IMG/VR virus record: IMGVR_UViG_2541047885_000003
Length of the DNA stretch: 8,493 nt
Reading direction: 5' to 3' (one strand)
Source: a virus
Lineage: Duplodnaviria > Heunggongvirae > Uroviricota > Caudoviricetes
Part shown: positions 1 to 6,006 of the stretch, one piece after another
Layout of the letters: each line of letters starts with the position of its first letter
Numbering within the stretch: position 1 is the stretch's first letter
Notes under the pieces: generated by a model
The model's database searches: none
Seen by the model: only the letters and a program-made list of their open reading frames with translations
What the model was told of the DNA's origin: nothing
Program-made: the position numbers and the translations under genes

Positions 1-287
1 AGTGTTTGTGCGGCAAGTATGCCAAACCAGTCGGCGGCATTCCGCAGCCGCTTCAGGAGAGCCACGTCAGATAATGTTGCAACGTCATGGAGCTGAGCCC
101 ATGCAGTGACTTCACGTAATGACATCCCCCCGGGGCCGTAAGCCAGCCCCAGACGTAGCAGAGTTGCAGCATCACGAATTTCGCGGCGGCGGGTTAGAGC
201 CCCGGCATTACGTGCCGAAGTATCCAGTTCTTCGGGCTTACCAATATGGGCCAGAATTGCTGACCAGTTATCGTGAGAGTAATTCAT
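1..287 (-). CDS. insL: IS186 transposase, N-terminal ~95 codons (5' partial in window; no stop before the window edge)
   Basis: Minus-strand ATG at 285-287; translation MNYSHDNWSAILAHIGKPEELDTSARNAGALTRRREIRDAATLLRLGLAYGPGGMSLREVTAWAQLHDVATLSDVALLKRLRNAADWFGILAAQT matches my recollection of the IS186 InsL N-terminus. Not in the ORF track because it is truncated by the window edge. Confidence 0.8.
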   Translation of the reverse strand, partial: MNYSHDNWSAILAHIGKPEELDTSARNAGALTRRREIRDAATLLRLGLAYGPGGMSLREVTAWAQLHDVATLSDVALLKRLRNAADWFGILAAQT

Positions 288-319
288 CGGCACGTTAAAT
301 CATATCAGGCGTAATACCA

Positions 320-342
320 CAACCCTTAAGTTAGCGCTTATG
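320..342. repeat. IS186 terminal inverted repeat
   Basis: caacccttaagttagcgcttatg at the element boundary; the flank begins GGGAGAATCCC, the kind of G..C-bracketed target IS186 is known to prefer. Confidence 0.65.
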
Positions 343-2080: not shown

Positions 2081-2643
2081 GCGTAAATATGATATATCCG
2101 GAAATTACAGGCAAAAGCGGCGAGCATTTACGTCTAAAAACGCTGGAAGCAGTCTGGATCCAGGGGAAATTACGGATGTGGGGGCGGTGGTCGTATATTG
2201 GCGGCGGTAAGACGGGAAATATGTTCAACCAATTACTGACCTCTAAAAAGCTGACAAAAACGGCAATTAACGAGGCGCTCCGGAGGATGAAAAAAGCTGG
2301 TCTGGACAAACCTGAACTTGAGGCTTTTTTGCGGGATATGATCAACGGCAATCAAAAAAGCTGGCTGGCACATTGTACCGATTCAGAGGCGTTAATAATC
2401 GACAGGGTTATTGGTGAAGTCCTGGCAGGCTATCCCGGGCTGCTCAATGTCCTGAGTCAGCGTTATGTGGGGCGGGGGATGACTAAGCGCAAAATGGCTG
2501 AACTGCTGAATGATGCACACCCGGAATGGAGTTTAAGAACCTGTGAAAGACGCATTGAGCATTGGCTAAAGGTGGCAGAATTTATTTTGTACAAACCAAT
2601 GGTTATGGCTTTTGGTATAGAGGAAAAAGTTATTGCTTTTTGA
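2077..2643 (+). CDS. late-gene antiterminator Q-like protein (alternative start ATG 2089)
   Basis: 188 aa ORF immediately after rusA and followed within ~80 bp by a strong intrinsic terminator, the canonical Q-PR'-tR' arrangement. Assignment rests mainly on synteny; sequence family not confirmed. Confidence 0.55.
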   Translation: MSVNMIYPEITGKSGEHLRLKTLEAVWIQGKLRMWGRWSYIGGGKTGNMFNQLLTSKKLTKTAINEALRRMKKAGLDKPELEAFLRDMINGNQKSWLAHCTDSEALIIDRVIGEVLAGYPGLLNVLSQRYVGRGMTKRKMAELLNDAHPEWSLRTCERRIEHWLKVAEFILYKPMVMAFGIEEKVIAF

Positions 2644-2720
2644 CGTAAAAACTGCTTCAATTCCGGTACGCTTCGCAAAGCTGTACCACGAGGCGAATAG
2701 CAGACATGGACATTTGAAAG

Positions 2721-2746
2721 AGCCCGCTTTTTGCGGGTTTTTTTAT
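2721..2746 (+). terminator. Rho-independent terminator, tR'-like (end of the short PR' leader transcript)
   Basis: agcccgc-ttttt-gcgggtt hairpin followed by a T7 run (tttttttat). Confidence 0.7.
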
Positions 2747-2867
2747 GCCTGAAAAACGGCACAGAACATTAAACGCGCTGGTGGTTGCGAATACCGGTCT
2801 TTCAGCTTGCTGGCTTTTCCGACAAGAGTTATTGGTATGTTACGTTAACCAGAAAAGGGAAAAAGAC

Positions 2868-3065
2868 ATGCTAAAACAGCAGGATATGACCGAAACCGCC
2901 AGAGTGGTGTTTAATGAGTTAAGCGTCACCGAACCGGCGACAGTCGGGGAGATTGCACAGAATACTTACCTTTCACGCGAACGCTGCCAGTTAATACTGA
3001 CCCAGCTTGTTATGGCGGGTCTGGCAGACTATCAGTTTGGTTGTTACAGACACCTTCAGTCCTGA
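2868..3065 (+). CDS. small (65 aa) putative winged-helix DNA-binding protein, PapI/FaeA-like pattern
   Basis: ATG 2868 preceded by AAAAGGGA SD; MLKQQDMTETARVVFNELSVTEPATVGEIAQNTYLSRERCQLILTQLVMAGLADYQFGCYRHLQS has the name-TxxEIA-helix layout of small wHTH regulators. The track ORF start at 2745 lies inside the tR' T-tract and has no RBS. Confidence 0.45.
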   Translation: MLKQQDMTETARVVFNELSVTEPATVGEIAQNTYLSRERCQLILTQLVMAGLADYQFGCYRHLQS

Positions 3066-3080
3066 AGGCTTTTTTATTTG
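3053..3080 (+). terminator. Rho-independent terminator overlapping the stop codon of the small wHTH ORF
   Basis: ccttca-gtcc-tgaagg stem-loop followed by cttttttatttg. Confidence 0.55.
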
Positions 3081-3394
3081 TGGTAAATGGGCGGCTGGTG
3101 GGTGTGGTGGTTGTTGCTTTCCCGTTGCTGAAAAAGAAAACGCCAGACTGTTAGCCGGGTATCAGTTATCTGGAGAAATTTTTAAATACCTCACAATTCA
3201 GGCGGTTGACTGTTGTCTGGTTTGCGGGGAGTTTGTTAAAAGAAACTGGCATGGTGAATCCCCCTGTGCGGAGGGGCAATCAGCAACTGGTGTTTTGTCA
3301 CCGACCCTTATCCTTTCTGTGCGGGTTCAGGTGCTGATACTGAACTCACCGGGAGGCACCCGGCATCATGCAATGGCACATAGCGCCACTCTCC

Positions 3395-3430
3395 AGCCCC
3401 TCTCCGGAGGGGCTGTTTATATTGATTTTG
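3395..3430 (+). terminator. Rho-independent terminator ending a ~330 bp non-coding stretch
   Basis: Perfect 8-bp stem agcccctc / gaggggct with tccg loop, followed by gtttatattgattttg. On the minus strand it is preceded, not followed, by the U-rich tract, so it is + strand specific. Confidence 0.5.
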
Positions 3431-3446
3431 TCAGATGTGAGTAAAC

Positions 3447-3480
3447 TCCTTATGGACTTTGTTGTTTTAGTCCATAAGGA
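3447..3480. terminator. perfect 12-bp inverted repeat (hairpin) between convergent transcription units; possible bidirectional terminator
   Basis: tccttatggact (3447-3458), 10-nt loop ttgttgtttt, agtccataagga (3469-3480); overlaps the last codons of the minus-strand ORF 3450-3785. Confidence 0.4.
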
Positions 3481-3785
3481 CATATTTGCAGAGTGCAACG
3501 GTTATTAAAGCATTCATTCAATACGTTATCTGTATTTGTAGGACATTCCTGGCTGTTTTTGATTAAATTCCAGAATGTTTTATTGAATGGTGCTACGTTG
3601 TAAATGGTTACAGGTAGCACTTTGTTATTGAGCATGATACCTGTGTGAGTCAGTGTAAATATACTTTCAGGAGGTAAGAAAGCATCCGATTGATACCAGA
3701 TTATTAATTTTATTTTACTCCATATGACTGAAAAAGATATTCCGCATGATGGCTGGATAACTGTATCAATCACAATCCACTTCAT
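3450..3785 (-). CDS. hypothetical protein (111 aa), ORFan in AT-rich island, transcribed opposite to the phage late operon
   Basis: Minus-strand ATG 3783-3785 with AAGGA SD about 6 nt upstream; five Cys in the C-terminal third (QECPTN...[16 protein letters not shown]); base composition far more AT-rich than the flanks. No family recognised. Confidence 0.4.
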
Positions 3786-3825
3786 TTAGTTTCCTTGTTT
3801 ATGTCTTGCTGGTGATGTTCTGAAA

Positions 3826-3852
3826 AGTATAAATGATATTTTTGAATGTAAA
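3826..3852 (-). promoter_or_regulatory. candidate sigma70 promoter for the minus-strand ORFan
   Basis: On the minus strand: -35 TTTACA (3847-3852), 15-nt spacer, -10 TATACT (3826-3831), about 40 nt upstream of the start codon. Spacer is short and AT-rich DNA yields chance matches. Confidence 0.25.
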
Positions 3853-4045
3853 CCATAGAGCAGAATTATTTTTCTGATGTTGTTTATTGTTTATTTAAAT
3901 GCAGGGTGGTTTATATCTCGTCTTGTAGTTTATCCATGCATATCTGCTTGATGATGAGGTTTTTATTTAAGGTATGGTTTTGTGTTTTTTCTGTATTACA
4001 TGTCAGGTATTTTAAAGAATTATTTTTCAGATGGTGGAAAGAACC

Positions 4046-6006
4046 ATGGCATTTAAACACTATGATGTTGTCAGGGCGGCATCGCCGTCAGACCTTGCGA
4101 AACGACTGACACAAAAACTGAAGGAGGGGTGGCAGCCATTTGGCAGTCCGGTGGCCATCACGCCTTATACCCTGATGCAGGCCATTGCGGCGGAAGGTGA
4201 TGTCACCACACCTGTGGTGGTGAAGCCGTCGGATGGAGAAGGCGCAGTTATCAGCACCACCAGCAACCCGGAGTATTACTTTGTTGTTGCCCTAGCCGGG
4301 CGGTCAAACGGTATGGCGTATGGTGAAGGGCTTCCGCTGCCGGAGACATATGACCGTCCGGACCCGCGTATTAAACAGCTGGCGCGTCGCAGCACTGTCA
4401 CGCCGGGTGGTGCGTCCTGTAACTACAATGACATTATTCCTGCGGACCACTGCCTGCATGATGTTCAGGATTTGAGTAAGTTTTCACACCCGAAAGCCAG
4501 CGCAGCTCAGTATGGATGCGTGGGGCAGGGATTACATATCGCGAAGAAATTGTTGCCGTTTATTCCGGCGAATGCCGGTATTCTTCTGGTTCCGTGCTGC
4601 CGTGGTGGTTCTGCATTTTTGGCGGGCGATGAAGGTACCTTCAGCGAATCCACCGGCGCAAGCGAGACCTCGGCACGCTGGGGTGTTGATAAGCCACTGT
4701 ACAAGGACCTGCTTACCCGTACTCAGGCCGCACTGAAGGCCAACCCTAAAAATATTCTGCTTGCAGTGGTCTGGATGCAGGGCGAGTTTGATTTGAAACA
4801 GGGTGCATACGCCACTCAGCCGGGGCTGTTTGATTCCATGGTGGAAAAATATCGTTCTGACCTGTCGGAATTCGGAGGTCAGTGTCTCGGGGGCTCTCCG
4901 TCATCAGTTCCCTGGATTTGTGGCGACACGACCTACTACTGGAAGCAGACTTATTCTTCGCAATACGATGCGGTGTATGGTGCATATAAGACGAAATCCG
5001 CAAAAAAATCTTCTTTGTGCCGTTTATGACGGATGAAAACGGGCGAAATGTGGGTACCAACGAGCCGTCAGAAGATCCGGATGTTGCGGATATTGGGTAT
5101 TACGGAGCCGGTGGTCGAACGGACGCCAAAACCTGGACGACGGCCGACCGTAAAACGCATTTTGGATCATGGGCACGTCGTGGGATTATTTCCGACCGTC
5201 TGGCAACGGCGATTCTTGTGCATGCCGGGAGAAACGCTGAATTCATTACCGGAAAACAGCCTGATACGGTGAAGCCCACCGGACCTTCCGGTGAAGGTAC
5301 GGAGAGAGAGCCGGAAGCCCCGGTCAGTAACCGAACCCTGATGAGTCTGCTGGCGTCCGGCGAAGACCTGGCATCACAGGGCTGGCGCTATTATCACAAA
5401 CCGGCGAGCGGAGACAATGTTAACAAAAACATTGCTGAAGCGGTGGTCAGTGATGCGGGGGCTACGGGAGGTAAGGCCCTGCAACTGAATAAACCGGAAA
5501 ACCACATCTGGTTTCTGGAGCATGATGCAGCCGGACAGGGAGTGGAGTTACTGAAGAAGGGGGGACGTGTGAGCGTACGGTTTAAGTTGCCGGGTTCACT
5601 GGTGCCGAATCAGTTTGCCCTGGGCATTTACTGGCAGTTGTCGTCCCTGCCGGAGGGAGTGACGCTGGCAGAGGAAGGCAACGACATGCTGATGTCCTTC
5701 TTCCTGCAGACGGATGCGACGAACCTGAACGCGATGCACCACAAGAAGCCGAATGCGAAGCTGGATACGTTCGGGGTCTTTGATAACGGATGGCACACAC
5801 TGGCTTTTGAGTTTGCCGGAAACAACAGCATTCAGGTGACGCCGGTACTGGATGAGAAACGGGGGACGCCGTTCACACTGGTGAAATCTCCGGCATCAGG
5901 GGCGGCGGACAAACTGCAACTGACAGGCATATCAAAGGCGGCGACATATACGCTGCTGATTGACAGTGTGAAGGTGGAAGTGAACAACGCGGATGCCGCG
6001 GCATGA
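4046..6006 (+). pseudogene. nanS: prophage sialate O-acetylesterase (NanS-p-like: N-terminal DUF1737-like region + SGNH/SASA esterase + C-terminal domain), interrupted by a frameshift at an A7 tract (5002-5008)
   Basis: Frame A 4046-5029 (MAFKHYDVVRAASPSDL..., contains the GRSNG esterase block) and frame B 5017-6006 together total ~655 codons, the size of intact NanS-p as I recall it. The frames overlap at gcAAAAAAAtc; adding one A (or removing two) fuses them into ...SAKKIFFVPFMTDENG.... Confidence 0.65.

Follow-up and report, generated by a model that had tools for sequence, protein, structure and literature searches.

A predicted winged-helix protein gene in the late region of lambdoid prophages and its linkage to M.EcoGII-family methylases

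The small gene behind the late terminator

We analyzed a stretch of 8,493 nucleotides (nt) from the virus record IMGVR_UViG_2541047885_000003 (Caudoviricetes), hereafter the window, and in particular a small gene in it whose 65-amino acid (aa) product is predicted to have a winged-helix (wH) fold. The window represents the late-regulatory region of a lambdoid prophage, with 99.9–100% identity to prophages of Escherichia coli ATCC 25922, sequence type 131 (ST131) and related strains. It contains, in order, a DUF968 gene, rusA, a DUF1133-type Q gene, a terminator, the wH open reading frame (ORF), the small RNA (sRNA) STnc100, iraM, a nanS-p-type esterase gene, and the holin and lysozyme genes. 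The wH gene runs on the + strand from an ATG at 2868 to the end of its stop codon at 3065, and the identical coding sequence (CDS) is called by the Prokaryotic Genome Annotation Pipeline (PGAP) in ATCC 25922, where the product is a "hypothetical protein" (WP_000917765.1). A Shine-Dalgarno-like AAGGG (2855–2859, + strand) lies 8 nt 5' of the ATG, and an AAGG...AAAAGACATG block is kept across genera. The 65-aa ORF with a ribosome-binding site that had been proposed from the sequence (the original prediction) is, therefore, borne out.

As the window holds 107 ORFs of at least 30 aa, an ORF of 65 aa is in itself unremarkable, and therefore the case for the gene rests on conservation. We found 334 homologues, in Escherichia, Shigella, Salmonella, Klebsiella, Citrobacter, Buttiauxella, and others, and a profile match over residues 1–64 (E 5.5e-37, 126.8 bits) places the protein in PHROG 331, a phage family to which no function is assigned. 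Against 63 other distinct coding sequences with measurable synonymous divergence, the ratio of nonsynonymous to synonymous substitution rates (dN/dS) was 0.03–0.23 in nearly all comparisons, rising to 0.3–0.4 for the two most divergent. The homologues with a conserved coding signal on which the original prediction depended do, therefore, exist. The ORF, the PGAP call, the hidden Markov model match, the homologues, the structure model (below), and the dN/dS values all bear on the call, and the small gene is real.

The distribution of the gene across prophages, which the original prediction had proposed to check, is wide within E. coli, as a 373-bp module (2733–3105) that contains it is present in 2158 of 5426 complete E. 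coli genomes (~40%), in up to 7 copies per genome. In many Stx2-converting phages the gene lies between Q and the toxin genes, and it is absent from Sakai prophage Sp15 between Q and stx1. A profile run against 1.8 billion representative proteins matched only 89 clusters, which makes this a narrow family. A literature search by protein accession and locus tag found no paper citing the protein. Two other readings of the region were considered and rejected. A 106-aa reading (2745–3065) would start at an ATG at 2745 that lies inside the terminator T-run; it has no N-terminal extension conserved across genera and no Pfam support. An overlapping 145-aa ORF (3007–3444) is likewise without Pfam support, is not conserved, and crosses both a deletion junction and the STnc100 sRNA, which are described below.

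An AlphaFold2 model built from a 22-sequence alignment has helix 1 at residues 7–19, a short strand, helix 2 at 26–32, helix 3 at 37–49, and a β-hairpin wing at 53–62, which is the H1-S1-H2-H3-S2-wing-S3 topology of the winged helix-turn-helix superfamily. The predicted local distance difference test (pLDDT) score was 84.7 for the best model, with the other four models lower. The protein is thus predicted to be a minimal single-domain winged-helix protein, in agreement with the winged-helix-like character that had been read from its sequence. Its best-conserved parts are an N-terminal "DMTExA" motif and helix 3, "RCQLILTQLVMAGL". There are two Cys residues, neither of which is invariant across the wider family. 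The isoelectric point (pI) of the window-type protein is 5.1, with only 5 basic residues, and that of the mEp460 type is 9.6.

Pfam TrmB (PF01978) matched residues 13–55 at 18.0 bits (E 0.0027), below its gathering threshold of 25.6 bits; MarR_2, DprA_WH, and HTH_24 scored more weakly than TrmB, and no Xre/HTH_3 profile was among the Pfam matches. NCBI names some homologues after the TrmB regulators, e.g., L23 of phage phiP27. However, TrmB regulators carry a C-terminal effector-binding domain, for which a 65-aa single wH domain has no room, and the name "TrmB family" is a fold-level label and not a functional assignment. NCBIfam has no family for the protein, and PADLOC, which covers defence and anti-defence systems, gave only a marginal match (E 0.002). 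Foldseek searches of PDB and BFVD returned generic wH matches only (E>1e-3), the top PDB matches being the N-terminal wH domains of S-adenosylmethionine (SAM)-dependent O-methyltransferases, domains that act in dimerisation. Identity with a known prophage regulator of enterohaemorrhagic E. coli (EHEC) was also rejected: PsrA and PsrB are AraC-type, and the word "winged" does not occur in one review of EHEC prophage regulators.

The gene is preceded by a Q-like late antiterminator gene of the DUF1133 type (2077–2643, + strand; Pfam DUF1133 E 5.6e-106, Phage_antitermQ E 8.2e-08, PHROG 753 "anti-termination protein Q-like") and by a tR'-type intrinsic terminator (2715–2752, + strand) that is indicated by folding and by its shared position in relatives. 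The terminator consists of a stem, AAAGAGCCCGC / GCGGGUUUUUU, and a U-run; the hairpin at ~2715–2745 together with U7 folds at −18.2 kcal/mol (z −4.7), and none of 200 shuffles was as good. A comparable terminator is found 100–135 nt 5' of the wH gene behind every Q type examined and in all genera aligned. Sequence common to prophages with differing Q genes starts at 2733, inside the terminator, as judged by megablast against Stx2, phiP27, and PhiR5_1 phages. The position directly after a tR'-like terminator was correctly predicted, and it fits the suggestion that the gene would be expressed by Q-mediated read-through of tR'. As a scan for consensus promoters on the + strand from 2400 to 4200 found none and so did not place PR', the label tR' rests on position and strength only.

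The original prediction also allowed for expression of the gene from a weak promoter of its own, and it credited the gene with its own terminator. The promoter is unconfirmed by the consensus scan, and in its place we found a conserved block, CTTGCTGG-N-CAAGAGTTATTGGTATGTTAC (2806–2843, + strand), in an alignment of 24 loci and in motif counts across loci. This block comprises a −35-like TTGCTG (2807–2812), 17 nt, TATTGG (2830–2835), and an extended −10-like element, TGg-TATGTT (2833–2841), and it could serve as a weak promoter or as an operator. Within the block is a box, CAGAGTTA (window version CAAGAGTTA, 2823–2831), which lies ~45 nt 5' of the wH start in many genera. The same box is found 5' of the gene 50-51 pair of phages N15 and phiKO2 and, in 10 leaders of the methylase described below, ~21 nt before the methylase ATG; in our set of loci, copies are located at L010:3957-3964, L010:4322-4329, L110:711-718, and L117:102-109. 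It may, as a candidate, be a shared operator or RNA site. The idea that the wH gene itself has a structured 5' leader was abandoned because the 5' untranslated region (2750–2875) folds no better than shuffles (z +0.5).

On the 3' side, a hairpin, CCUUCAG-UC-CUGAAGG, spans the stop codon and is followed by CUUUUUUAUU (3053–3078, + strand). In the terminator scan and in folding it is terminator-like and weak: the hairpin (3053–3068) with U6 reaches −6.8 kcal/mol (z −1.1), and 32 of 200 shuffles were as good, which falls short of the terminator that had been ascribed to the gene. A hairpin across the wH stop codon has nevertheless been preserved in other genera, where its stem sequences differ, and in relatives it stands directly 5' of the methylase leader.

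The methylase cassette, its leader RNA, and the deletion in the window

The usual downstream neighbour of the wH gene is a gene for a β-class N6_N4 methyltransferase of ~350 aa (Pfam PF01555), and this synteny is conserved. The pair is present in phages phiP27, SfV, mEp460, and phiNP, in Hafnia phage yong2, in Stx2a, c, d, e, and k phages, and in prophages of Kluyvera, Salmonella, Citrobacter, Klebsiella, Enterobacter, Proteus, and others. In 88 of 109 loci a full-length methylase starts 147–153 nt 3' of the wH stop codon, several of the other 21 being contig ends. Among species-level GTDB loci the methylase was found in 19 of 21, and the remaining two are one contig end and one methylase loss. 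The family as a whole, therefore, occupies a methylase-proximal accessory position directly 5' of leader and methylase, a position that the gene in the window does not have. An intact wH-leader-methylase junction occurs in 1982 E. coli genomes, and the arrangement of the window in 195. The typical order is Q and tR', the wH gene, a hairpin with U-run, a leader of ~150 nt, the methylase, often tRNA genes, and then stx, esterase, or lysis genes.

This linkage holds across considerable exchange of parts. The loci stand behind at least four unrelated Q families, and the wH subtypes of SfV and mEp460, which are 46% identical, precede 98%-identical methylases with near-identical leaders, which indicates that a wH gene has been retained through module shuffling. 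Distant homologues in the linear-plasmid prophages N15 (gp51), phiKO2 (gp51), and PY54 (ORF59), which were linked to the family by hhalign (E 1.3e-4 to 2.5e-4), adjoin the same methylase. These proteins share with the window protein their size, an "MTExA" N-terminal motif, the same register, and the nearby methylase and leader; they differ in being only 22–26% identical and in lying 5' of the annotated late promoter and tR'.

The methylase belongs to the M.EcoGII family. According to Murray et al. (PMC5778455), the methylase of phage 1720a-02 closely resembles M.EcoGII, and our analysis of that phage places the wH gene directly 5' of this enzyme. Constitutive expression of M.EcoGII is deleterious and the gene is silent in its native lysogen (Murray et al., PMC5778455); the word "upstream" does not occur in that paper. 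The homologue of Serratia OS31 was found by experiment to be non-specific, and the phiP27 protein NP_543076 was named as a homologue (PMC7556043).

The intergenic region of ~150 nt between wH gene and methylase is better conserved across genera than the wH CDS and shows compensatory changes. We built a covariance model of this leader from 22 sequences, and the model found the element 5' of the homologous methylase in N15, phiKO2, PY54, Serratia OS31, VHML, MAR, Val-yong3, and phiARM81ld, at 29–59 bits. With the exception of phiO18P, the leader precedes every M.EcoGII-family methyltransferase examined in phages of Enterobacterales, Vibrio, and Aeromonas; full elements are found, for example, at L004:3195-3344, L067:3140-3290, L110:1356-1500, L112:1316-1460, and L109:1218-1368. 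In a 36-sequence alignment, whose covariation figures are to be read with the caveat that it was fitted to the model, 93.7% of cells were paired, versus 24–38% when the partners were slid; double-sided changes occurred in 24 of 34 pairs, and there were 70 compensatory cells, versus 10.7 ± 2.8 in shuffles. The leader structure, thus, covaries. No family for the leader was found by Rfam (Rfam 15) in four methylase-bearing loci, and we consider the leader a candidate for a new cis-regulatory RNA, absent from Rfam.

Two features suggest how the leader may act. The final ~13 nt 5' of the methylase ATG, a stretch with no evident good Shine-Dalgarno sequence, are base-paired in its outer helices (3 and 4), and translational control of the methylase is, therefore, plausible. 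In addition, Aeromonas phage phiARM81ld and Vibrio phage Val-yong3 have genes for zinc-ribbon proteins of the Mu Com type between leader and methylase (L109:1362-1577 and L114:762-878, respectively); p55 of phiARM81ld matched PF10122 at 27.9 bits against a cut-off of 22.9. Their placement points to post-transcriptional gating in this methylase family. The Val-yong3 gene carries the erroneous annotation "RNA polymerase subunit P". A terminator-type hairpin with a U-run always lies directly 5' of the leader; it is tR' in the N15-like phages, VHML, and phiARM81ld and the wH stop-codon hairpin in the lambdoids.

Comparison with these loci revealed what is missing from the window. Homology to the methylase-bearing loci spans 2733–3105 and resumes at 3096 with sequence that lies 1.5–2.2 kb further on in those loci, 3' of the methylase and three tRNA genes. 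The junction, as placed by blastn coordinates and a three-way alignment, is a 10-nt microhomology, TGGTGGGTGT (3096–3105), with ~1.5–2.2 kb missing relative to L009 and L073. Of the leader, the first ~25 nt remain (GUGGUAAAUGGGCGGCUGGUGGGUGU, 3080–3105, + strand), as seen in the alignment to the methylase-bearing loci, in our intergenic collection, and in a search for Chi sites. The comparison indicates that a microhomology deletion removed leader, methylase, and tRNA genes from this prophage and that the wH gene in the window is probably an orphaned remnant beside STnc100 and iraM, which may no longer have its normal target. Phage PhiR5_1 has the same arrangement as the window. The original prediction had stated that 933W-type phages carry tRNA genes after tR'. 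A search of the 8.5-kb window found none; relatives do have them, although 3' of the methylase, together with which they have been lost here.

Chi sites (GCTGGTGG) are abundant in the window, with 8 found versus 0.4 expected from shuffles. They lie at 944, 1002, 2777, 3094, and 8348 on the + strand and at 1408, 1460, and 4257 on the − strand. Two flank the wH gene: the 5' one at 2777–2784 (+ strand), and one at 3094–3101, which makes up the first leader hairpin's left arm and falls in the deletion microhomology. At the same junction PGAP calls a 24-aa "DUF3927" CDS (3080–3154, + strand) in ATCC 25922 and identical genomes; this is a chimeric frame that arose when the deletion joined the start of the leader to the 3'-terminal part of a DUF3927 ORF.

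Several observations were made on the other genes of the window. Rfam matched STnc100 (RF02076) at full length at 3220–3424 (+ strand, 133.5 bits), with a terminator of its own at 3394–3415, and had no match over the wH gene; STnc100 has been related to prophage PasD sRNAs in a 2026 preprint. A prophage-borne homologue of the anti-adaptor IraM (3450–3785, − strand; NCBIfam NF007393, 162 bits; PHROG 4407) converges on the STnc100 terminator, and in relatives the same sRNA-iraM pair is found 3' of the methylase and tRNA genes. The nanS-p-type esterase (DUF1737, SASA, and DUF6645; 4031–6006, + strand) is read as two overlapping ORFs and is described as "frameshifted" by PGAP in identical genomes. 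The DUF968 gene is split into ORFs at 777–1526 and 1547–1708 because it has 2 nt fewer near ~1493 than in ATCC 25922, and in this strain it has probably become a pseudogene. The first ~340 nt of the window (1–340) are unlike ATCC 25922, which has hokD there; no hok ORF was found in the window.

What the wH protein may do

We tentatively propose, at somewhat less than even confidence, that the wH protein is a late-expressed, nucleic-acid-binding gatekeeper of the methylase cassette, which has been orphaned in this prophage. In such a scheme the protein would come chiefly from the late transcript of PR', after Q has enabled read-through of tR', and it would bind nucleic acid nearby through its conserved helix 3. 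Candidate targets would be the CAGAGTTA-type box 5' of its own gene and the methylase leader. Binding would gate a methylase that harms the cell if mistimed, much as Com acts on mom in phage Mu or as controller proteins act in restriction-modification (R-M) systems. What we infer in this scheme is that the protein binds nucleic acid, which target it has, in which direction it regulates, and that it is expressed late. The scheme is favoured by the N-terminal motif and helix 3 being the conserved surfaces of the protein, by a linkage that persists despite the exchange of wH subtypes, by the distant homologues that adjoin the methylase in N15, phiKO2, and PY54, by a type of methylase that needs tight control, by the Com-type genes of the Aeromonas and Vibrio relatives, and by the recurrence of the CAGAGTTA box.

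Both models invite a closer comparison. Com of Mu is a translational activator of ~60 aa, encoded directly 5' of mom, a DNA-modification gene that is toxic if mis-expressed. The wH protein is also ~60 aa and encoded 5' of a harmful DNA-modification gene, the start region of the methylase is paired in the leader, and Com-type zinc-ribbon genes precede the homologous methylase in phiARM81ld and Val-yong3. However, Com (PF10122, Zn_ribbon_Com) is a four-cysteine zinc ribbon, whereas the wH protein has two Cys, a different fold, and no place in the zinc-ribbon family. It is also encoded 5' of the leader and parted from it by the hairpin and U-run, whereas the Com-type genes lie between leader and methylase. 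An RNA-binding gate of unrelated fold, analogous to Com and acting with the ~150-nt leader so that the methylase is silent in lysogens and on late, is a specific form of our proposal that we regard as unlikely. R-M controller (C) proteins are small helix-turn-helix proteins encoded 5' of modification or restriction genes, and they time a potentially lethal enzyme. The wH protein resembles them in being small, of helix-turn-helix type, and encoded just 5' of a DNA-modification gene. In contrast, C proteins are Xre-type dimers that act at C-boxes, usually 5' of C-R operons; the wH protein has no Xre/HTH_3 signal, no restriction gene was found in any locus annotated, and its partner is an orphan, non-specific methylase encoded among the late phage genes. 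We do not, therefore, count it among the C proteins.

A number of observations weigh against the proposed gatekeeper. The link of the protein to leader or methylase is contextual, as it is drawn from synteny. A pI of 5.1 is atypical for a nucleic-acid binder. As the Com-type genes and the wH gene are on opposite sides of the leader, they are not strict positional equivalents. The palindromic first hairpin of the leader (GGCTGGTGGGTG...CACCCACCAGCC), which we had considered as a sequence-specific DNA operator, changes in both arms in Proteus and Hafnia while helix 3 stays constant, and its sequence cannot, therefore, be the recognition target. Methylase and near-unchanged leader occur with no wH gene at all in phages LLS, Eeyore, Serratia OS31, and VHML, so the protein is not required for the cassette. 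Conversely, an intact wH gene lacks the methylase in this window, in the 195 E. coli genomes, and in phage PhiR5_1. Elsewhere, the slot between tR' and leader holds unrelated cargo, i.e., a GIY-YIG nuclease or a 192-aa membrane protein, and the adjacency may, therefore, stem from a hot spot for morons combined with tight linkage. A hidden wH domain in the 192-aa protein that replaces the wH gene in LLS was excluded (hhalign E 0.4).

Several of these observations favour a different explanation, which is essentially the idea of the original prediction: that the gene is an independent moron, i.e., a weak promoter, a gene, and a hairpin in a cargo hot spot behind tR', encoding a small transcription factor that would act, during lysogeny or once the prophage is induced, on host or other prophage genes. 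Its adjacency to the methylase would then be historical linkage. We consider this possible, though doubtful. It would account for intact ORFs under purifying selection at loci without a methylase, for methylase cassettes that work without the wH gene, for unrelated genes in the same slot of other phages, and for a 373-bp module that moves as a unit behind differing Q genes. For the promoter and terminator expected of a moron, the conserved −35/−10-like block and the hairpin that flank the gene are candidates; yet the scan found no consensus promoter, the critical T at the last position is missing from the candidate −10 (TATTGG or TATCTG), and the hairpin and U-run make a weak terminator. The methylase linkage also survives 46–57% protein identity, swaps of wH subtype, and at least four Q backgrounds, which exceeds the neutral hitch-hiking expected in mosaic phages, and no data in our analysis suggest a host target.

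The protein could, alternatively, bind another protein, as an adaptor or inhibitor, e.g., as a partner of the methylase that alters its activity or targeting, or as a neutraliser of a host factor such as a type IV restriction enzyme that depends on N6-methyladenine (m6A) and would cut phage DNA rich in methylated adenine. The acidic character of the window type with its few basic residues, a conserved helix 3 that is largely hydrophobic, the O-methyltransferase domains found by Foldseek, and the linkage to a non-specific m6A methylase would all agree with such a role, as would the description, in a passage of PMC11037411, of prokaryotic wH domains as known sensors of adenine methylation. However, the charge is not conserved, given the pI of the mEp460 type, the PADLOC match is only marginal, and the gene is retained at loci that have lost the methylase, and we think this role improbable. 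Far less probable still is a regulator like PapI, FaeA, and PefI, the co-regulators of fimbrial phase variation, that would act with Lrp at Dam (GATC) sites to switch host or prophage operons, the type of protein that the sequence pattern had first brought to mind. Similar size and single-domain wH architecture, and a conceptual tie to adenine methylation through the neighbouring methylase, speak for it, but Pfam FaeA gave no match at E≤0.1 and a search of PDB sequences with the family profile gave nothing significant, with no PapI or PefI at E≤10. More than 100 loci, moreover, are all in phage late regions, between Q and methylase, esterase, or lysis genes, and never in a fimbrial operon. From these comparisons, the assignment to the PapI/FaeA/PefI family appears largely refuted.

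Meaning for the phages and the methylase family

The wH family is an uncharacterised, narrowly distributed phage family whose members are annotated as "hypothetical protein" or, loosely, as "TrmB family". As the gene in this window is probably a leftover of a deleted cassette, a phenotype in this strain is not to be assumed. The more interesting results lie partly beyond the window, in the cassette of wH gene, leader, and M.EcoGII-type methylase and in a structured leader RNA that Rfam lacks. M.EcoGII-type methylase is a widely used biotechnology enzyme, and both its silence in the lysogen and the harm caused by its constitutive expression were noted and left unexplained by Murray et al. (PMC5778455). 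An RNA gate, if correct, would explain the absence of M.EcoGII expression in the native strain. If the wH protein, the leader, or both control the methylase, they would define a regulatory cassette of a new kind in the late operons of lambdoid phages, those with Shiga toxin included, and they would provide a directly testable model of how these phages time genome-wide anti-restriction methylation.

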